A DNA stretch of 64,000 nt, from IMG/VR virus record IMGVR_UViG_3300042366_001473. One strand, written 5' to 3'. A program made the translations under genes and the position numbers. This document shows, in pieces, positions 1 to 11,229 of this stretch (positions within the stretch are counted from its first letter, which is position 1; each line of letters begins with the position of its first letter). This DNA comes from an uncultured virus (IMG/VR IMGVR_UViG_3300042366_001473). Lineage: Duplodnaviria; Heunggongvirae; Uroviricota; Caudoviricetes. The notes under the pieces were generated by a model that saw nothing but the letters and a program-made list of their open reading frames with translations, had not been told where the DNA came from and searched no databases.

Positions 1-1
1 G

Positions 2-169
2 TATTACGAGATTGATCTAACATTTGATCAAGAAGTAGTGATACAGCACTGTTTGATATATCAACACAATCTAAATCTCAAAACTTGGAAATTGTCAAAG
101 TTTCCAAACAACACACAAGACTTGCACAAATTGCTAGAACCCAACACACATCCAGTGGCCAACTATTGA
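2..169 (+). CDS. 3' end of a hypothetical protein entering from the left edge of the window
   Basis: Frame 2 is open from base 2 (YYEIDLTFDQEVVIQHCLIYQHNLNLKTWKLSKFPNNTQDLHKLLEPNTHPVANY) to TGA 167-169. It is absent from the ORF track because its start lies outside the window. Confidence 0.7.
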   Translation, partial: YYEIDLTFDQEVVIQHCLIYQHNLNLKTWKLSKFPNNTQDLHKLLEPNTHPVANY

Positions 170-612
170 GAACTGCTACGCAGTTCTTGGTGTATCGCTG
201 TCGCTCACACCAGTTGTTGAATCAAAGAGCGAAGCGATTAAATGCTTCATCCAGATCTTATGGTCACACTTTGCCCGCACAGGGCAAAGAAACTTCATCC
301 GAGTCGGGCAAGTCACTTAGCGTTACAGCATTGCAGAGGCGGTTGTCCGGTACCTCGAGCTGCGTCTTTATCACAACGGCGATTTGTATCACACACGCTA
401 ACATGCATACAAACGTGTACTATCACTAGTACGTCTTTTTCCCTTTTAAAATTCTGTTCAAACAATCAAATCGCAGGTGTTGAGCGATCGTGGTCCTGTC
501 AAGGATACTGATTGAGTGCTCGCGGCAGCGGCGAGGCTTCGGATCCCTGCGACACTGGGCCCAGGTTTCTACTGTTCGGCACACGAGGTTGACCTGTGCA
601 AGTCTTGACTGC
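169..612 (-). ncRNA. Candidate large structured non-coding RNA (or structured cis element) immediately 3' of the GIY-YIG gene
   Basis: This is the only long intergenic gap in the window. It is tiled with stems at 579-599, 519-535, 463-468/509-514 (enclosing 470-488 and 494-505), 417-432, 383-413, 336-356, 269-289, 188-212 and 169-187. The 417-432 stem has a GTGA (GNRA) loop on the minus strand, and the 383-413 stem extends by G-U pairs only on the minus strand. Confidence 0.6.
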
Positions 613-1047
613 TTAACTGTGTAGTTTGTTGATTATGTGACTGCCGTGCACACGAACCTGAATGTGTCCGTTGTACCAGTCTTGGGATTCTAGCACTCGT
701 CGTGAAAATTGTTCTCTTGCTTCGATATAGCTGCATTCTGATTTAGATTTACAGTAATAAAGTATTTCTCGTTTGAAGTTGTCTTTGCCTTGAGATTCAA
801 CATCCCGGGAGAGCTCTGGGCTGCTACCGTAATAGTCCTGCCAGTCGCTGTCCACCTTGGTGCGAATCTTTTTTTTCTTCTTGGTGCCGTTTTTGAGTTT
901 GACTGTTCGTTGAGTTGTTTTTGAGAACTTGGCTAGTTTTTTGCCTATGTATTTGCGATCGGTTCTGATGTTGGTGATTAGGTACACAAAGCCCACACAA
1001 TCTTCTGGGAGAGTTTCCACCGGTTGATTGTTGTATAGCCATGTCAT
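613..1047 (-). CDS. Stand-alone GIY-YIG family endonuclease
   Basis: GFVYLITN...KYIGKK motif, YYGSS, F-x-REIL, and candidate catalytic Glu (YIEARE) and Asn (WYNG). It has a Lys-rich insert and no C-terminal DNA-binding modules. Confidence 0.85.
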   Translation of the reverse strand: MTWLYNNQPVETLPEDCVGFVYLITNIRTDRKYIGKKLAKFSKTTQRTVKLKNGTKKKKKIRTKVDSDWQDYYGSSPELSRDVESQGKDNFKREILYYCKSKSECSYIEAREQFSRRVLESQDWYNGHIQVRVHGSHIINKLHS

Positions 1048-1080
1048 TGCATATAATTTATGATTGCTGCCAGGTTGCTT

Positions 1081-1719
1081 TTAAATTTTGTCTGTTAATA
1101 TTTGTATAAATCTTTTGGGGTACGAAGTTCTGGTATGAAAATTGTCACTGGAGTGTAATACATTTCGTTGGAATGAAAACAAGTTACCAGGTTTCCAGGG
1201 ACGACTTACATATCGAAGACTCAAATACTCTCGGTCTTCATCCCAACAATGGCTTAGGTTGTTTTGCCAAAAGTTTTGATCCACTGGATTTGTTGTTTTT
1301 TTATTGGTCTGTTTGAACTTATAAAAATCGTTGTGTTCGGCAGTTTGATCAAACAGTATCGTACGACTGTCGCAATTGCTCAATGCAATAATGACCGAAT
1401 AATAAGGGCGCCCAACATTGCTGGATCTAACATAATCAGTGTGAACATCCCAGGGCAAAGATAATTCTTGAAGCACCAGTTCAGACACACGATATTCGCC
1501 GAGCAGATTGTCTAATTTTGGTTTTATGATGCTGACAGCTTGATCAGATTGATCCCATGGCTGTATGGCCTGATTGGCAATTAAACTACCTTTGGTAAAT
1601 CTTCCACCGTTGGAATAATAAGGAACCATTTGCCATTTTTCAACTGCTGCGTTTACTTGTTCAAGCTCAATAGCAGTTAAAAAATTTTCAATCTCAATTA
1701 TTTCTTTCAAGGTATTCAT
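1081..1719 (-). CDS. 2OG-Fe(II) oxygenase-like protein
   Basis: IENFLT N-terminus, HxD (VHTD), distal His (VLHSS) and terminal KRFI. ATG at 1719 is preferred over the track's TTG start. Confidence 0.6.
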   Translation of the reverse strand: MNTLKEIIEIENFLTAIELEQVNAAVEKWQMVPYYSNGGRFTKGSLIANQAIQPWDQSDQAVSIIKPKLDNLLGEYRVSELVLQELSLPWDVHTDYVRSSNVGRPYYSVIIALSNCDSRTILFDQTAEHNDFYKFKQTNKKTTNPVDQNFWQNNLSHCWDEDREYLSLRYVSRPWKPGNLFSFQRNVLHSSDNFHTRTSYPKRFIQILTDKI

Positions 1720-1721
1720 AG

Positions 1722-2819
1722 TCAATTGGTAAGATAACCTACAGCATAGTTCTGATCAACTAAATTACAATGGCATTTTTGTTCACATTCAACCCAGGCT
1801 TTGCCTTGATTGTCGAATGTATCAAACAGTTTGGACCAAACTGGGTCATTCAGGACCTGATCCAGTGACCTAGATTTCAAATCCAACTTGCTTCTATGTA
1901 TCTGATGAAAACTATCTTTAAAATGTATAGTTTTTCGATCTGTGCTGATACTGTGGTATGGATAGCTGACCCAACTACATGGATGCAGTATTCCGTCGGC
2001 ACTGACGTATATTCCTCGATTTCCAATGCTGCACATGGGAGTTATCATTTGTTGATGCTGCTGTTTGATTTCTATAAAACGTTGCTGATTATGAGCTAGA
2101 TAAGATTGGTTCAGCTGTTGTCTGTCAGAGAGCTGTTCAAAGTATCTTTCATATCGATGAGTTTTGCTTATAAACTCTAGATCAGGTTCAAGCGGGTCAT
2201 GGACTCCACCGTATGCTTCTCCGTACTTGCTGCCAAATTTTGTACTGTACGTAAGTTGTAATCCATCGCACCCGGCGTTTTGTGCTTGGGCTCGTATGCT
2301 ATCAATGTGGGCCTGATTGAACTTAAACAAAATAGTGGCCCAGTACACAAATGCAGAACTATGTTGGCACATGATATCCATGCCTTGCATGATACTGTCC
2401 CAGTTGCTGCCAACTCTGTATAGATTGTTTGACTCATTATCGTACCCGTCGATACTAAAATTAATAGTGTCATACTCGTTACTGACTTTGGCAAAATCTT
2501 GCCACCAATCAGCTTTTCTATAGCTGCCATTGGTGATGGTATACACATGTATTTTGGGATTATGTGATTTGATGTAGTCTACGATCTCGATGTATTCACT
2601 GGCATAGATTGGATCTCCAATGTCACCACACATTGTGATACGTTGGACTGTGTTTTTAAGTAGATCAGGAGTTAGAATTTTTTTGAAAAAATTCAAATCC
2701 AGTTCTTTGTTTAACCACGGTACAGGGCTGGCATCATTTCGAGGACACCGAGGACACTTCAGTGTGCATTTGCCACTGACTTCAAAATGCCAATGATAAA
2801 GTTGCCAAGGATACATCAA
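1722..2819 (-). CDS. Radical SAM protein with C-terminal SPASM/twitch-like domain
   Basis: CTLKCPRC (CxxxCxxC), GDIGDP, TNGS, FSIDG, and C-terminal C...YVSADGILHPC...CEQKC. Confidence 0.9.
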   Translation of the reverse strand: MMYPWQLYHWHFEVSGKCTLKCPRCPRNDASPVPWLNKELDLNFFKKILTPDLLKNTVQRITMCGDIGDPIYASEYIEIVDYIKSHNPKIHVYTITNGSYRKADWWQDFAKVSNEYDTINFSIDGYDNESNNLYRVGSNWDSIMQGMDIMCQHSSAFVYWATILFKFNQAHIDSIRAQAQNAGCDGLQLTYSTKFGSKYGEAYGGVHDPLEPDLEFISKTHRYERYFEQLSDRQQLNQSYLAHNQQRFIEIKQQHQQMITPMCSIGNRGIYVSADGILHPCSWVSYPYHSISTDRKTIHFKDSFHQIHRSKLDLKSRSLDQVLNDPVWSKLFDTFDNQGKAWVECEQKCHCNLVDQNYAVGYLTN

Positions 2820-3418
2820 GGAGAAATTTCTATGTATTTTACTGTATTGTCAAACAACACACTGACAATTTTGTTTGCTACATTTTCTGGAAGCAAATGC
2901 GGATTGTTGTAAATGTCCTGATATCGATCAGGTGTGTTCTTGTATCTTGCTTTGTTGAAATTGGTTTTAGTTAATCCCAATCTAATCTCTAGCAAACAAC
3001 AATCAGGATACTCGACACGAAGCATGTCTCCAAATATAGACAATGAAGATTTGGTCAGGCTGTATACTAAATCTCCTGGCCAATACCGATTGTTGTTGGT
3101 ACTGGTAATGTTGACTATTTTACATGCTGGATTGATTTTTAATACGTTTTTGGTTAGTAAAATTGGCGCAAGCAAATTGGTATTGAAAATTTCAACAACA
3201 TCGTTGCTGCAATGATTTGCAAACTGTTGTTTTCCGCCTAGTCCGGTACCAGCACAATTTATCAACATGTCAAAGTCGACATCTAAGTCATCGATATGTT
3301 TTGTATTGGTTAGATCAAATGTGTTACGGTTGGGTGCAATTACTTGATGGTCCACTGACAAAGTTTCAAACAAAGCAGCACCAATGCCGCTTGATGCACC
3401 GGTTAAGAATATTTTCAT
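2816..3418 (-). CDS. Short-chain dehydrogenase/reductase (SDR)
   Basis: TGASSGIG Rossmann motif, INCAG and catalytic YSLTK. The true start is likely MKIFLTG at 3418, an ATGA overlap with the upstream stop. Confidence 0.9.
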   Translation of the reverse strand: MKIFLTGASSGIGAALFETLSVDHQVIAPNRNTFDLTNTKHIDDLDVDFDMLINCAGTGLGGKQQFANHCSNDVVEIFNTNLLAPILLTKNVLKINPACKIVNITSTNNNRYWPGDLVYSLTKSSLSIFGDMLRVEYPDCCLLEIRLGLTKTNFNKARYKNTPDRYQDIYNNPHLLPENVANKIVSVLFDNTVKYIEISP

Positions 3419-4920
3419 AGCTGGCCAATCTCGAATATTTTTTTTCTTGGGCCCACAAGGTGTTGCTTTGCCAGCGTCAGCAAACTGCTGAGTTCTTGGC
3501 GGACCCTTGGCTGAGGATACCCATTCTTGACACAATGTTCGTGAATTTCAACTCGCCGACGTATGCGCTCTGCAAGGTCTAGAGACGGATTCTTGGAACT
3601 TACCCAATTGTAAGTGCTGGTAAATCCCAGGCTGCCTTGAGCATCCAATACAATATCCAAATCCTTGAGCATCTCAGCACTGGTTATTGGTGTGTCGTCG
3701 ATAAGGTGCATGGTAGTTCCCCATCGAATTAGTTCGATTATTCCTTGTTTGGCATACAGGGAGTATTTTTCTAAACTGTTTAAGTTTTCAACATGATCTT
3801 GCAATGTCTCAGTAGGGTACCCGCAAATCATCAACCAAACATTTTTGATATTCCATCTACTGCATTGGTCGATGTGATAATCAATATCAAGATTGGTAAA
3901 TTTTTTACGCATGTGGTATCGAACATTTTCACTAAAGCTTTCAATACCAATGGTAACCTGCTTGCATCCTGCATAGTACATGGCTTCGTAGTGTGAGGCA
4001 GACATTTGAGACTGGGGTCTGCAAATAAATTGTCCAATGTAGCTGACATTTTTGAGATCAGGATTTTTGACTTTTTCCTCAGCTAGCAAACAGTTGAATT
4101 GATAGAAGTTACTGATGCTACCATTGATCAAACTGTCTGTAAAATCAAATTCTGTGACCCCAAGATCATAGTAATGTTGTTTGATTTCTTCTACCAACTT
4201 ATCAGCTTTTCTGAATCGAAATTTAGGCCAAGTCGCACCAATGTCGCAAAACGTACAGTTTCTTACACATCCACGACTTCCGGTAACATACACTTTTTTT
4301 GCACTATACAAAGACAGATCAAAGTTTTTGTAGTTGGGGATCGGGAATTGATCAATGTCCCAGTCGTTTTTCTGAGGTACTTGATTAACTCCGGGCACAC
4401 AAGTTTCGCCTTTGAGTATGGCATCAAACGTGGGCTCACCGTCGCCGATCACTACAAAATCAGCCAATTGGTTTTCAACAACCCAGCTAGAAAAGCCAAT
4501 TTTTGTATCAAAAAATTTACTGTTGCATCCGTTGCCGCCCAATACAATTTTGGATAAAGTTCTTTTTCTCAGCCATGGCAAAATTAATTGTGCCATCCTG
4601 AGACTCCACATACTAAAAATACTGATACCAATGAATTCAAAACTGTCAGGATCTATTTTGTTGATTTGCTCGCACCATAGATCAAACACCTTTTGTCTGA
4701 GTTCTTCAGAGATACCATGGTAGTCAATGGTGATACCTACCAACCAATCACTGAGTTCAGCAAGTTCTTTTTCGTTGAGTGTGCGGTGCAAAAAAATATT
4801 AAAGTCTAAAAACTCGTAAGCCTTTTGATTTTGTTCGCAGATTGCTGCCAAAACTGCCAATGCTCCGGGAGGTGCCAATGTGTCGTACATGGGGAGGTTA
4901 ACTAATAATACTCGGCTCAT
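3415..4920 (-). CDS. Cobalamin-binding (class B-like) radical SAM protein
   Basis: N-terminal B12-binding-like region (PPGALAVLAA, IGISIFS, IVLGG, GDGE), then GSRGCVRNCTFC, IGIESFS and GYPTET. Confidence 0.88.
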   Translation of the reverse strand: MSRVLLVNLPMYDTLAPPGALAVLAAICEQNQKAYEFLDFNIFLHRTLNEKELAELSDWLVGITIDYHGISEELRQKVFDLWCEQINKIDPDSFEFIGISIFSMWSLRMAQLILPWLRKRTLSKIVLGGNGCNSKFFDTKIGFSSWVVENQLADFVVIGDGEPTFDAILKGETCVPGVNQVPQKNDWDIDQFPIPNYKNFDLSLYSAKKVYVTGSRGCVRNCTFCDIGATWPKFRFRKADKLVEEIKQHYYDLGVTEFDFTDSLINGSISNFYQFNCLLAEEKVKNPDLKNVSYIGQFICRPQSQMSASHYEAMYYAGCKQVTIGIESFSENVRYHMRKKFTNLDIDYHIDQCSRWNIKNVWLMICGYPTETLQDHVENLNSLEKYSLYAKQGIIELIRWGTTMHLIDDTPITSAEMLKDLDIVLDAQGSLGFTSTYNWVSSKNPSLDLAERIRRRVEIHEHCVKNGYPQPRVRQELSSLLTLAKQHLVGPRKKIFEIGQL

Positions 4921-5306
4921 TTTAAATACTGTTTGAGTTGGCTAACTAAATCTAGATTTGAATTTTTTATGCCCAAATAATAATCAATATCTTCTTGTGT
5001 TGTTAGATTCAAGTAATCTATTTTTCCCTGCACAATTTTTTCTTGGTACCGATGATAGAACCCTGAATCCCATTTAAGTCTAACCATGTGATCGTACAAT
5101 TGCATATCAGCGCACCAGTAATCCAACAGATGATTGTCAACTCTGACCAATGGTTTGATTTTCCATGGTTCAAAGAATATTTCTACATTGCCGTTGCAGT
5201 TTATATCAACACAATATTCTTGTTGTTGTTGATAGTGCTCAACCACTGATCCATTGATTTCAAAACGTATCATAGTCAAATTAGAATGCTCAACGGTCAA
5301 CAGCAC
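4917..5306 (-). CDS. Hypothetical protein
   Basis: 129-aa ORF in the operon with a 4-bp overlap to the next gene and a GGA-type RBS upstream. No recognisable motif. Confidence 0.7.
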   Translation of the reverse strand: MLLTVEHSNLTMIRFEINGSVVEHYQQQQEYCVDINCNGNVEIFFEPWKIKPLVRVDNHLLDYWCADMQLYDHMVRLKWDSGFYHRYQEKIVQGKIDYLNLTTQEDIDYYLGIKNSNLDLVSQLKQYLK

Positions 5307-5316
5307 TGATTATTCC

Positions 5317-7398
5317 TTATGCATGCTCTATGTCTGTATTATAGCTGGTAAAGCCATTTTCTTTGACCACTCTGAGTATGTTCTCAACTCGTCCGGCCAA
5401 CTCGTCTCTGTGACTCACAAGCCAAACACTCTTGTTGCGTTCGCGGCTCATGCGTTTCAGTAGACCCAAGGCGTTTTCTACGCCAGATGTGTCTAAACCA
5501 TTGTCGATCAGTTCGTCAATGAACAGCAAGTTGATGGGGTGATAAAGGCTTTCCCATACATCACGGAATGCCCAGCTCATGCTGAGAATTAATCGGGTAC
5601 GCTCGCCTCTTGACAGATTGTCAAAGTCCAGTTCACGACCTAGTTCTTCGATATTTACCGACAAATCATTCATGAATTTCACAGTGTGCGGCAAGCCCAT
5701 ACGATCCAGATAGTGGGTAAGTCTGCTGTTGAGATAACTGAGATTTTGATCAATGATTTTTTTGCGAACAAAGCTGTCTTTGGAAGTCAACAGTTTCAGC
5801 AAGAAGTCTTGATGATCCTGTACTCGGGTCAGCTCGTTGAGGTGATCGTAGCTCACAGTTTGCAGAGCCTTGGTCTGCATATCAGCAATCTGTTCACCAT
5901 AGGGATCAGTTTCGGCATGCTTGTTTGTGATCTGTGTCAGCAAACTAGCAACTTGGCTGCTGTGTTTGATAGCTTTTGCTTCGGTGTCGTAGTGGGTAAC
6001 TGGTTGCTGACCAGGATCCACTTCGGGCATTTCTGCCAGTTGATCAGCATAAGGGTTGACTTCGGTAGTTTTATTTTCCAGTGTTTGACGAAGCGCATCT
6101 AACTCAGTGGAGTGACGTATTGCTTCGGCTTCTGTGGTGTAATGTGTTGTGGGCGGAACACCCAGCTCGCCCAGCTTCAACAACGCATTAGTGTGCTCTA
6201 TCCATTGACTGTTGGTGGCCAAGACCTGTAAGGCAGCTTCTTGTAGTGTTTTTTCTTTTGTAGCCAACACTGACTCGTGACTGACATCATGAAAGTCTTG
6301 TCCACATGCATAGCACTTGTGATTTCGGAGTTCTTCAATCTCGGCTCGTAGTTTTTCTACCAGCTTGACTTCTTTCTTCTCGTCCTGAACACAACGGGCG
6401 ATCAGTTTTTCAAGTTCGGCAATGTCTCGAGATTTTTGATTGTGAGCAGCTAACTGTGCCCATGCTGCTAGTTCAATATCAATGCTGATACGATTCTTGT
6501 CCGAATATGCACGACCTGCGGCTTCGACTTCGGTGTTGTGTTTTTGTTGCCAGGCTGTGCTGCGAGCTGACAGGCTGTTGCGAGCTTCTTGTTGTCGACG
6601 ACGATCACTCCATACAGTTAGGTCTTGGTGTGCTTGTAATTCTGCTTCAATGTTGATCTTGGAAAGTTCGTCATACTGACCAACTAGAATCTGTAGATCG
6701 CTGTCGTATTTTTTCTGCCATAGCACTTGTCTGCGACGCAGGCTTTCGATCTGTTCTTCTATGCGTTTGTTGGCTTCTTGCTCGGCACGTATACGAAATT
6801 CTTCTTGCGAGATCGCATCTTTGGTTTGTCGATTTAACTCTTTGACACGATCGGCTCGTTCACTCAACAGGGTAATGCCCAACAACTGCTCAATGATGGC
6901 ACGTTGCTCATTGGCCTTCAAACTCAGGAATGGTTCAGTATAGGTATTCAACGCCAACACATGTTTGAACATGTCGTGACTCATGCTCATGATGCGTTCG
7001 ATCACTTCCTGCGTTTCTTTGTTTTCGCCTTGTGCTTCGTCTGTGGCAGCTTGTGCTTCGTGGTTCACATAGAACTTCAGCACATTGGGCTTGCGACCAC
7101 GTTCAATTCTGTAGTCCTGACTGCCCACACTGAAGTCCAGACTTACCAGCATGTTCTTGCCGTTGGTCTTGTTCACAAGGTTGTCCTTGCGAATATTTGA
7201 CAGTGCATTGCCATACAAGGCGTAACTCAACGCATTGATGATTGTGGTCTTTCCTGTGCCGTTGCGACTGCCGTCGCCACCTAGGTCCAGGTTCTCGCCT
7301 AGTACCAGCGTCAAGTCCCTGCGATCAAAGTCAATGCCTTGTGTGGCATTGCCCACACTCATGAAGTTTTTGACAGTGAGTTTTTTAATGTGAATCAT
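5317..7398 (-). CDS. gp46: Recombination endonuclease ATPase subunit (T4 gp46 / SbcC / Rad50-like)
   Basis: KNFMSVGN, Walker A (NGTGKTT), coiled coil with Zn-hook CYAC, signature LSRGE, Walker B LFIDE and H-loop VSH. Confidence 0.95.
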   Translation of the reverse strand: MIHIKKLTVKNFMSVGNATQGIDFDRRDLTLVLGENLDLGGDGSRNGTGKTTIINALSYALYGNALSNIRKDNLVNKTNGKNMLVSLDFSVGSQDYRIERGRKPNVLKFYVNHEAQAATDEAQGENKETQEVIERIMSMSHDMFKHVLALNTYTEPFLSLKANEQRAIIEQLLGITLLSERADRVKELNRQTKDAISQEEFRIRAEQEANKRIEEQIESLRRRQVLWQKKYDSDLQILVGQYDELSKINIEAELQAHQDLTVWSDRRRQQEARNSLSARSTAWQQKHNTEVEAAGRAYSDKNRISIDIELAAWAQLAAHNQKSRDIAELEKLIARCVQDEKKEVKLVEKLRAEIEELRNHKCYACGQDFHDVSHESVLATKEKTLQEAALQVLATNSQWIEHTNALLKLGELGVPPTTHYTTEAEAIRHSTELDALRQTLENKTTEVNPYADQLAEMPEVDPGQQPVTHYDTEAKAIKHSSQVASLLTQITNKHAETDPYGEQIADMQTKALQTVSYDHLNELTRVQDHQDFLLKLLTSKDSFVRKKIIDQNLSYLNSRLTHYLDRMGLPHTVKFMNDLSVNIEELGRELDFDNLSRGERTRLILSMSWAFRDVWESLYHPINLLFIDELIDNGLDTSGVENALGLLKRMSRERNKSVWLVSHRDELAGRVENILRVVKENGFTSYNTDIEHA

Positions 7399-10137: not shown

Positions 10138-11229
10138 ATGTCCACAGAATTTCCACAACAGGTAAACCCCAACACAGACCCTGAACTGCCGCAGGCCAAT
10201 CCTGCGGATTTTGGCGCGACCGGCGAAACTGGCGCCGCAGAAAATTCTGCGCCTAAGCCTGTTGATCCCGACAACGATCCTGTTGTTAAAGAGTTCTTTG
10301 AACAGCGACGCCAAGAGCTTGAGACCCAGGCCAATGAAGATGACGACCCTGACAGCGACGCCAATGCAAGAACCAAGGCCTTGCTCAAAGAAACTCAGGA
10401 ACAGGCCAGCATTCAGCAGTACTTCAACCAAACCACCAAGGGCGACTGGCGTGTACGACTGCGTATTGCACCAGATGCTGAGTACCTGTATCAAGACAAA
10501 AGCAATGCGCTGTTGGCACCACTCAGGGTCAGCGACGGTGTGGTATTTCCCTATACCCCTATAATCAACACCAGCTATGCTGCCAAATACGATCCATATG
10601 ATCTAACACACTCCAACTATCGTGGATACTTCTACAAAGGTAGTCAGGTCAGCGATGTGCAAATTCAAGCCACATTCACAGCACAGGACACCCGCGAAGC
10701 AGAGTATGTGCTGGCAGTGATACAGTTTTTTAGATCAGCTACCAAAATGTTCTACGGCAAAGATCAACAGCGTGGATCTCCACCGCCCCTAGTATACTTG
10801 CGCGGCTATGGAGAATATCAGTTCAACGACCATGCCTGTGTGATCACCAATTTTCAGTACAACTTGCCCAACGACGTTGACTACATTGCAGTCACTCCCA
10901 ACAACATAGGGCTGAACCTGAGTAACAGACAGCAACAAGTTGGATCATCGCCAGTCAGCACCATTAGTTCAGCCATAGGACGACTCAGCAACTTGTTCAA
11001 TGCAGTAACTGGACAGCCCGGTGTGCCCAAAGGTGCTGTGCCAGGCACTCGAGGAGATCTGGGACAGACTCGTGCAACAGTCTACGGCTTGAATCAAGCC
11101 ACATATGTACCAACCAAAATTGACATGAACATTACCTTACTGCCCATACAGACCAGGTCACAAGTCAGCAAACAGTTCAGCGTCAAAGAATTCAGCAATG
11201 GCAACTTATTGAAGAAAGGATTCTGGTAA
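10138..11229 (+). CDS. Probable baseplate / tail-tube initiation protein
   Basis: First gene of the baseplate cluster. DWRVRL...GVVFPYTP...PPPLVYLRGYG pattern is tube/baseplate-like. The family call is inferred from context. Confidence 0.55.
   Translation: MSTEFPQQVNPNTDPELPQANPADFGATGETGAAENSAPKPVDPDNDPVVKEFFEQRRQELETQANEDDDPDSDANARTKALLKETQEQASIQQYFNQTTKGDWRVRLRIAPDAEYLYQDKSNALLAPLRVSDGVVFPYTPIINTSYAAKYDPYDLTHSNYRGYFYKGSQVSDVQIQATFTAQDTREAEYVLAVIQFFRSATKMFYGKDQQRGSPPPLVYLRGYGEYQFNDHACVITNFQYNLPNDVDYIAVTPNNIGLNLSNRQQQVGSSPVSTISSAIGRLSNLFNAVTGQPGVPKGAVPGTRGDLGQTRATVYGLNQATYVPTKIDMNITLLPIQTRSQVSKQFSVKEFSNGNLLKKGFW

Follow-up and report, generated by a model that had tools for sequence, protein, structure and literature searches.

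A large multi-pseudoknotted RNA that extends the Polynucleobacter-1 motif adjoins an exchangeable nuclease gene in uncultured T4-like jumbo phages

The Locus

The genome of an uncultured virus (IMG/VR IMGVR_UViG_3300042366_001473; Caudoviricetes) harbors a gene for a small GIY-YIG nuclease that is directly followed, on the same strand, by a non-coding RNA of ~440 nucleotides (nt). The window, that is, the whole stretch of 64,000 nt analyzed here, is the minus strand of positions 11034–75033 of a 349,369-nt virus record rated 97% complete. The nuclease is encoded by an open reading frame (ORF) of 144 amino acids (aa) at 613..1047 on the minus strand, the RNA occupies 169–612 on that strand, and a convergent 344-aa gene terminates at 169, its 3′ end (2..169, plus strand) bounding the RNA from outside. 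One clade of uncultured T4-like jumbo phages encodes this multi-pseudoknotted RNA, a far longer form of a known motif in a new gene partnership.

An earlier inspection of the letters alone (the sequence-only reading) had singled out the gap at 169–612, which starts at the nuclease stop codon, as exceptional, and it is indeed the only sizeable non-coding stretch in the 64 kb: when ORFs of at least 90 aa on either strand are counted as coding, 430–612 is the sole ORF-free stretch of at least 150 nt. A 114-aa ORF at 85–429 (plus strand) overlaps the RNA and is not conserved.

Covariation and Conservation of the RNA

The structure of the RNA, written by hand, has 15 helices with 87 pairs, and four of these helices form pseudoknots. 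Across 33 sequences, 52 of the 87 pairs carry changes on both sides, a figure that 0 of 500 shuffles reach, and 95.2% of the paired cells are able to pair, vs. 81.9% in the shuffles. Sliding the 3′ partners by 1–3 columns leaves at most 23 pairs with double changes and at most 42% of the cells paired. In a larger set of 76 distinct full-length sequences, with a median identity of 67.5%, these helices are again prominent. Conservation covers the whole 444 nt 3′ of the stop codon, beyond the part known to Rfam, with 70–94% identity in 54 of the 80 loci kept, and the RNA remains 0.66–0.67 identical where the four-fold sites of the nuclease gene are 0.37–0.40 identical. The genome holds a single copy of it.

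Among the modeled pairs, G-U cells outnumber A-C cells by 4.6 to 1 (499 vs. 109) and, therefore, the RNA is assigned to the minus strand, which is that of the nuclease gene. The sequence-only reading had placed it there on account of G-U pairs specific to this strand, and had regarded the gap as more than an accident of spacing; covariation, G-U bias and conservation bear out both points. It had also called the element highly structured, which holds by covariation but not by energy, as the folding energy of the 444 nt is ordinary (z = -0.76 for the minus and -1.17 for the plus strand, equaled by 20 and 14 of 100 shuffles) and these scores lie within chance. With regard to expression, sequencing runs available as contigs gave only small word shares, and contigs of relatives span 201–1050 in three RNA-recorded runs (four examined), records from which strand and ends are absent and in which DNA carry-over is possible. 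No sigma-70-like promoter was detected between the ORF and the RNA by a scan that does not cover phage promoter types.

Architecture of the RNA

The 5′ domain of the RNA (460..604, minus strand; helices 1–6) is the Polynucleobacter-1 motif, Rfam family RF01718. It is matched by cmscan from 604 to 460 with 79.1 bits, against a gathering cut-off of 37, over positions 1–141 of the 141-position model, and no other Rfam match occurs in the 64 kb. Helices 2–6 comprise 23 pairs, 10 of them doubly changed, with 96.9–100% of cells paired. An extra 3-base-pair pseudoknot joins 602–604 to 591–593, within the loop of the first hairpin (595–599/579–583); among the 76 sequences, 47 have GC and 27 have AU at its pair 603/592. 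The multi-branch junction is closed by 509–514/463–468 (six pairs, three doubly changed) and encloses 484–489/469–474 (again six pairs, three doubly changed) together with a hairpin at 503–504/495–496. An A-rich linker (433..459, minus strand), poorly conserved according to the alignment and the entropy profile, leads from the 5′ to the middle domain.

The middle domain begins with two hairpins (382..432, minus strand; helices 7 and 8). The first, at 417–432, has a GNRA loop, GUGA, and double changes at five of its six pairs, and the second is a long hairpin at 382–414 with 11 of 13 pairs doubly changed, whose loop forms a long-range pseudoknot. This pseudoknot belongs to the core (318..400, minus strand; helices 9–12), in which 396–400 pair with 318–322 (five pairs, three doubly changed; 397/321 is CG in 59 and UA in 17 of the 76 sequences), 373–377 pair with 342–346 inside the loop of hairpin 353–356/336–339, and 360–363 pair with 325–328. 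The pairs 362/326, 361/327 and 360/328 each occur as at least four pair types in the 76 sequences, the first of them heading the mutual-information ranking, and the core stretch GAGGUACCGGACAACCGCCUC is nearly invariant. All the stems that the sequence-only reading had listed, including the junction, the GNRA stem and a hairpin at 383–413, recur with covariation in 33 relatives, and the pairing it had proposed between 395–401 and 317–323 corresponds to the loop pseudoknot just described.

Towards the 3′ end lies a region with twin 12-nt motifs (245..316, minus strand): motif 1, GUGAC N7 ACUCGGAUGAAG, at 293–315, a hairpin at 269–289, and motif 2, GUGACC N6 AUCUGGAUGAAG, at 245–267. According to the pair counts in the 76 sequences, homologous positions of the two motifs (305/257, 300/252, 296/248, 294/246) co-vary in identity and not as complements: 300/252 is GG in 50, AA in 25 and GA in 1, 296/248 is GG in 51 and AA in 25, and 294/246 is UU in 46, AA in 22 and GG in 8. 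No partner column for the motifs was found within the RNA. Such covariation in identity would be expected of two sites for one partner.

The motifs are followed by a conserved AUCGCUUCGCUCU element and a variable A-rich linker (212..237, minus strand, by alignment and terminator scan), with insertion hot spots at 222–231. A terminator-like hairpin (GAAGC/GCUUC) with a U-rich tail is present at 230–249 (minus strand), inside the RNA and before its last two hairpins, but close relatives such as L038 do not preserve its stem. The first of those two hairpins (189..211, minus strand; helix 14) has a covarying stem with six of eight pairs doubly changed, an internal GA/GA loop and a GNRA tetraloop, GACA. 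The second is a terminal 8-base-pair hairpin with a G-Y-A loop (169..187, minus strand; helix 15), all eight pairs of which are doubly changed, with seven covarying pairs in the 76 sequences; conservation ends with it, and it abuts the stop codon of the convergent gene.

No conserved ORF exists in the RNA region. A coding reading of it was rejected, considering that the ORF starting from the first twin motif has 5–49 codons and misses its ATG in 22 of 69 cases, and that the spacing of the twin motifs, 47–58 nt, is not confined to multiples of three.

The Polynucleobacter-1 Motif and the RNA Classes

In the literature searched, the Polynucleobacter-1 motif appears only in Weinberg et al. 2010 (PMC2864571), with a seed of 16 sequences from fresh water or estuary and from Burkholderiales, and with a "y" for both RNA and cis-regulatory in the table. 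Some seed rows reach GCCGUUG..AGGUACCGG..AACCGCCU, which is the 342–377 region of the window, and the drawing labels as "pseudoknot?" a UAGCRU/YRCUR pairing that corresponds to 396–400/318–322 (PMC2864571), so that the middle of the RNA had already been partly seen in 2010. The seed also contains the 5′ domain alone, 135 nt in a bacterial genome, NC_009379.1 (PMC2864571). The twin motifs, the 269–289 hairpin and the two terminal hairpins do not appear in the first alignment rows and the drawing of that work, and its passages on the motif contain neither the link to a nuclease nor T4-like jumbo phages nor the sister classes (PMC2864571). The cis-regulatory rating also differs from the arrangement described here, where the RNA follows a gene and 82 of 108 downstream genes are convergent. 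The novelty expected by the sequence-only reading is thus confined to part of the element: the 5′ third is a confident match to RF01718 and the loop pseudoknot was drawn in 2010, whereas the remaining two thirds, running ~300 nt past the end of the 141-position model, lie outside it.

These two thirds are shared with two further classes that have other 5′ domains. Class 2 (e.g., L055) and class 3 (e.g., L017) keep only the 3′ half of the RNA, and RF01718 is found in 0 of 16 loci of class-2/class-3 type, but is present in L098 and L102. The 5′ domains of these classes, of ~190–320 nt, match no Rfam family at gathering level (L055, L061, L065 ~2927–3110; L017, L044, L069, L078) and are further undescribed RNA domains. 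The stem of the 269–289 hairpin differs by class, yet stays paired (UUUGCCC/GGGCAAA, UUCACCG/CGGUGAA, GGAACCG/CGGUUCC). RNAs of classes 2 and 3 stand behind proteins 79–86% identical to that of the window, whereas class-1 RNAs stand behind proteins down to 54% identical and, therefore, the class of the 5′ domain does not track GIY-YIG relatedness.

The Nuclease

The ORF at 613..1047 (minus strand) encodes a stand-alone SegE-type GIY-YIG nuclease with no further domain. Residues 3–129 match PF19835 (SegE_GIY-YIG) over profile positions 1–123 of 123, with an expectation value (E) of 9.2e-34 and 116.8 bits against a cut-off of 25, and this is the only PF19835 match in the 349-kb genome. Structure prediction from the single sequence was poor (predicted local distance difference test, pLDDT, of 49), and an alignment-based AlphaFold2 model (pLDDT 92.7) was used in its place; it presents a single domain with a lysine-rich beta-hairpin inserted at residues 40–66. 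The GIY-YIG domain plus basic arm described by the sequence-only reading is recognizable in this model, with the correction that the arm is the beta-hairpin, inside the domain and not appended to it. The top structural match is the catalytic domain of I-TevI (1ln0_A; Z 8.4, root-mean-square deviation 2.6 over 82 residues), and further matches are a restriction endonuclease specific for 5-hydroxymethylcytosine (Z 7.4), the GIY-YIG domain of UvrC (Z 5.7) and T4 EndoII (Z 5.7). Foldseek returned nothing at E ≤0.001, with I-TevI appearing at a probability of 0.94, and a profile search of solved structures gave a single weak match, 3r3p (E 0.18). Six residues are invariant in 30 relatives (Y22, Y33, G35, K37, E109 and N126), and Y22, Y33, E109 and N126 are presumably the catalytic positions, by likeness to I-TevI. 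Relatives of the protein occur in at least 590 viral stretches, and they are mostly 130–190 aa long among the best 150 listed.

In a sister GIY-YIG subfamily, 33–45% identical, none of 80 loci has the RNA, and the gap after the stop codon is at most 62 nt in 61 of 65 loci. These sister loci were drawn with one distant protein as query, the alignment of distant relatives being too diverse. As the sister proteins are equally small and go without the RNA, small GIY-YIG size does not call for an RNA partner.

Linkage of the RNA to a Nuclease Gene

The association between the two elements was sampled in three ways: via the protein, via the RNA alone (two pattern scans), and via the C-terminus of an SbcC/Rad50-like gene that lies upstream. 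Anchoring on the protein gives 64 loci that extend 450 nt or more past the gene, and 62 of them have the RNA; the exceptions (L072, L077) have a 380-aa ORF in its place. Anchoring on the RNA yields 142 distinct loci, 75 of them with at least 700 nt upstream, and all 75 have a nuclease gene upstream on the same strand, which is of the GIY-YIG type in 73 and of the PD-(D/E)XK type in 2. Of these 73 genes, 64 abut the RNA, whereas the other 9 are separated from it by a single extra ORF and lie 250–1050 nt more distant. In most loci, the RNA starts right at the nuclease stop codon or overlaps it. The 80 loci anchored on the SbcC/Rad50-like gene comprise 50 with the RNA and GIY-YIG, 5 with the RNA and PD-(D/E)XK, 18 that end inside or right after the nuclease gene, and 6 with less than 1.6 kb downstream, so that all 55 assessable loci have both nuclease and RNA. 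The one remaining locus, L464, was considered as an empty site and rejected, accessory genes filling the available DNA to its end. The nuclease–RNA pair is located 40–4600 nt downstream of the SbcC/Rad50-like gene.

The extra ORF found between GIY-YIG gene and RNA in 9 loci is of 257–341 aa and overlaps the nuclease stop codon (e.g., L095 687–1460, L100 604–1455, L161 438–1460, L049 2929–3726). It has no significant Pfam or PHROG family, and one group carries a GCSISHGVG motif and is SGNH-hydrolase-like by eye.

After the RNA, 108 unique loci have a convergent gene in 82 cases, a same-strand gene in 23 and none in 3, with at least 20 families represented. Given this variety and the prevalence of convergent genes, the RNA lies at the end of a transcription unit, not in the position of a 5′ leader. 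The 344-aa gene of the window is found 3′ in 19 of 137 loci with an RNA match and at least 1.5 kb available.

Exchange of the Nuclease ORF

The nuclease ORF is exchangeable, with GIY-YIG in most genomes, PD-(D/E)XK in some and never both. In L098, L274 and L251, the GIY-YIG gene is replaced by a 173-aa gene of PF24608 (PDDEXK_15; E 2.5e-29 for the protein of L098). The RNAs of the PD-(D/E)XK loci share their core and twin motifs with the others, and their 5′ domains are of class 1 or resemble class 2. The genome of the window has one PF19835 and no PF24608 match, and five records of the PD-(D/E)XK type (17–71% complete) have no PF19835.

A short leader (1048..1080, minus strand) separates the 214-aa gene upstream from the start codon of the nuclease gene. 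It was analyzed by gathering the upstream regions of 123 distinct loci, of which 70 are listed. In relatives it reads ..GATAACTA N6–9 ATG, often with ..CAGGCAGCA.. ahead of this, and the copy of the window has diverged to ..GGCAGCAATCATAAATTATATGCA ATG. A leader of the GATAACTA type also precedes the PD-(D/E)XK gene in L449 and, in weaker form, in L098 and L454. The idea of a general phage signal was discarded, there being 0 matches elsewhere in the 64 kb. A CAGGCAG(C/T) sequence occurs ~25 nt before the nuclease start and again directly after the stop in, for example, L279, L153, L064 and L232, and CAGGCAG, which is related to the leader, is found right after the stop in many loci. This direct repeat bracketing the ORF may have been left by an insertion, or it may provide two processing sites.

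Neighboring Genes and Distribution

An accessory island at 1081–5306 separates the nuclease gene from the SbcC/Rad50-like gene (5317–7398), which belongs to phrog_77 (E 1.3e-105) and is presumably T4 gp46-like. The island contains a radical SAM gene by Pfam at 1722–2819, a 501-aa gene at 3415–4920 with a radical-SAM-like Cys motif by eye, a FabG-like reductase at 2816–3535, and 214-aa and 129-aa ORFs without clear family. In relatives, the island has 0–5 accessory genes, and at least 5 in L464. The convergent 344-aa gene has no PHROG family match and its family is unassigned. No transfer RNA (tRNA) or transfer-messenger RNA gene was detected in the 64-kb window, and no DNA similar to 1–3000 was found among named phage records. 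Only three matches come from bacterial or archaeal genomes (L202, L203, L204), all of them metagenome-assembled, and they offer no clue to the host. These are labeled Bacteriovoracaceae, Pacearchaeota and Bacteroidetes, each having a contig that bears the phage nuclease gene, and the contigs are probably mis-binned phage DNA.

Models for the Nuclease–RNA Locus

The RNA, its fold and strand, its linkage to a nuclease gene and the ORF swap are plain from the comparisons; what the arrangement does is a matter of interpretation. The explanation tentatively preferred, at slightly less than an even chance, proposes that a Seg-type nuclease gene is lodged in the transcription unit of a conserved stable-RNA gene, and that the RNA acts in trans as a scaffold. 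According to this model, the RNA would be the last element of a transcription unit that starts from the SbcC/Rad50-like gene, and it would most likely be produced as the 3′ part of the nuclease transcript. The nuclease would be a free-standing, homing-style endonuclease that uses the signals of the RNA unit and drives the inheritance of the linked RNA allele. In trans, the RNA may serve as a folded protein-binding scaffold, and not as a guide, with its two co-varying motifs binding two copies of one partner.

Several observations weigh against this proposal. No cleavage site, empty site or homing event is seen at the examined loci, and no nuclease-free RNA locus exists among them (0 of 75, and 0 of 55 when anchored on the SbcC/Rad50-like gene), whereas homing endonuclease genes are usually sporadic. 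The nuclease gene is, moreover, under purifying selection, and this and the lack of nuclease-free loci are at least as compatible with a needed function as with a selfish one. The 144-aa protein lacks the separate DNA-binding domain typical of characterized Seg/I-TevI enzymes. The covariation in identity of the twin motifs might have any of several causes (a protein or a nucleic acid shared by both, or a parallel contact), and the RNA-run contigs of relatives are not counted as proof of a transcript. Moreover, all the loci come from one phage clade, with SbcC-like C-termini 75–90% identical and, consequently, the linkage counts are not independent events.

It can be argued, instead, that nuclease and RNA form a functional pair, in which the RNA would act on the nuclease by binding, licensing, restraining or targeting it, either by itself or via a third protein. 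This is a possible but rather unlikely explanation, and the same holds for its extension, that both constitute one system, acting for example against host or rival-phage DNA. It is kept alive by the lack of a nuclease-free locus, which is unusual for a selfish gene. The co-occurrence is universal in a highly plastic region, the stop codon touching the RNA start in most loci, and each genome has here exactly one nuclease of either fold, which reads as in-place replacement by an analogue. The nuclease, moreover, has a long lysine-rich beta-hairpin and no DNA-binding domain, and the conserved single-stranded twin motifs suit two copies of a protein. However, the same RNA core and the same variants of the twin motifs accompany two unrelated nuclease folds; the RNA class is incongruent with GIY-YIG relatedness; in 9 of 75 loci the two elements are separated by an unrelated ORF; the RNA is missing from two GIY-YIG loci of the subfamily (L072, L077) and from all 80 loci of the same-size sister subfamily; and no variable segment of constant length was found as a guide candidate.

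The last point bears directly on the RNA-directed nuclease suggested by the sequence-only reading, which is not upheld. No guide-like segment appears in the alignment or the entropy profile: the variable unpaired parts (433–459 and 212–224) are A-rich linkers that change in length, and the other variable parts are paired stems, in an RNA whose ends are not mapped. Neither the sister loci nor the variable parts nor the class incongruence seem to fit a guide RNA tailored to its nuclease, and the same RNA core is found behind two nuclease folds. Guidance of the nuclease by the RNA therefore lacks support. Among the papers listed by a literature search, judged by titles and abstract openings, none deals with a GIY-YIG-linked RNA.

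A bolder variant, in which the conserved frame of leader, exchangeable small nuclease ORF and RNA represents a new kind of nuclease–RNA partnership, is quite unlikely: the RNA would license, restrain or direct a domain-less nuclease of either fold via the twin motifs, perhaps with a third protein, or it would be a new large ribozyme with the nuclease transcript as its target.

The RNA might also be a cis-acting 3′ untranslated element that stabilizes, terminates or tunes the mRNA of a potentially toxic nuclease, regardless of which ORF occupies the frame, and has no role in trans. Consistent with this idea, the RNA closes the unit on its 3′ side and faces convergent genes, its terminal hairpins covary and a terminator-like hairpin is present at 249–230, and the frame is preserved upon ORF swap. 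It is nevertheless very unlikely, since a stabilizer or terminator would need far less than 440 nt, four pseudoknot helices and long stretches of invariant unpaired sequence, the 5′ domain occurs alone in the bacterial genome mentioned above (PMC2864571), and in 9 loci the RNA follows another ORF and not the nuclease gene.

Finally, an element acting as DNA (an origin, iterons or protein-binding sites, with the twin 12-nt direct repeats as the sites and the hairpins as by-products), which the sequence-only reading had kept as its main alternative in the form of an origin or priming signal, is highly improbable: the motifs do co-vary in identity as sites for one DNA-binding protein would, and an inverted-repeat-like pair, AUCGCUUCGCUC/GAGCGACAGCGAU, is present at 194–236, but the 52 compensatory pairs, the excess of G-U over A-C on one strand and the covariance-model match to an RNA family speak for RNA, and pseudoknots are meaningless in duplex DNA.

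Comparison with Known Systems

The preferred model of a nuclease gene lodged in a stable-RNA unit has a precedent in SegB, a GIY-YIG enzyme encoded in the tRNA cluster of T4, which recognizes a conserved motif of tRNA genes and spreads itself together with these genes (PMC2330249). In both cases, a small GIY-YIG Seg-type gene is found among stable-RNA genes of a T4-type phage. SegB is, however, missing from the related T2L, RB1 and RB3 (PMC2330249), whereas no nuclease-free locus was found here, and its neighbors are tRNAs instead of one large pseudoknotted RNA. For the locus described here, cleavage and homing are putative.

Regarding RNA–nuclease systems, OMEGA consists of IscB or TnpB and an omega RNA (formerly HEARO); its RuvC/HNH nucleases have RNA-binding parts, each protein family goes with one RNA family, and the omega RNA carries the guide at the edge of the element. 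The likeness lies in the mobile or phage setting and in the arrangement, with a compact nuclease gene and a large structured RNA side by side on one strand. The difference is that here the nuclease is a bare GIY-YIG or PD-(D/E)XK domain, and the RNA is indifferent to which.

Group I introns with GIY-YIG genes, such as the T4 td intron with I-TevI, also have a conserved RNA frame that holds ORFs of different nuclease families, and the catalytic domain of I-TevI is the closest structural match of the window nuclease. Nevertheless, here the ORF precedes the RNA and is not looped out. A group I intron was considered and rejected, as no host gene is split: both flanking genes are complete, with 33 nt between the upstream one and the ORF, and the downstream one is convergent. 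The group I intron model has no match at E ≤1 in 1–3000, where RF01718 is the only family found.

GOLLD and ROOL are large ornate RNAs of phages and bacteria whose function is not known, and the RNA described here resembles them in being phage-borne, longer than 400 nt and rich in helices and pseudoknots. It differs from them in its smaller size, in having no Rfam match except RF01718, and in its fixed partnership with a nuclease gene.

Implications

An orphan Rfam motif of 2010 is the 5′ domain of a much larger RNA, which has several pseudoknots and at least three interchangeable 5′ domains and can now be placed in one clade of uncultured T4-like jumbo phages. Ribozymes and ribonucleoprotein scaffolds account for most RNAs of comparable size and complexity, which makes this one a concrete candidate for biochemistry and cryo-electron microscopy. 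The locus also illustrates that a compact nuclease beside a structured RNA is not in itself evidence of RNA guidance. The swap between GIY-YIG and PD-(D/E)XK before the same RNA is a clean natural experiment, which could reveal either the route by which selfish nucleases colonize stable-RNA genes or the way in which a phage couples a bare nuclease to an RNA.

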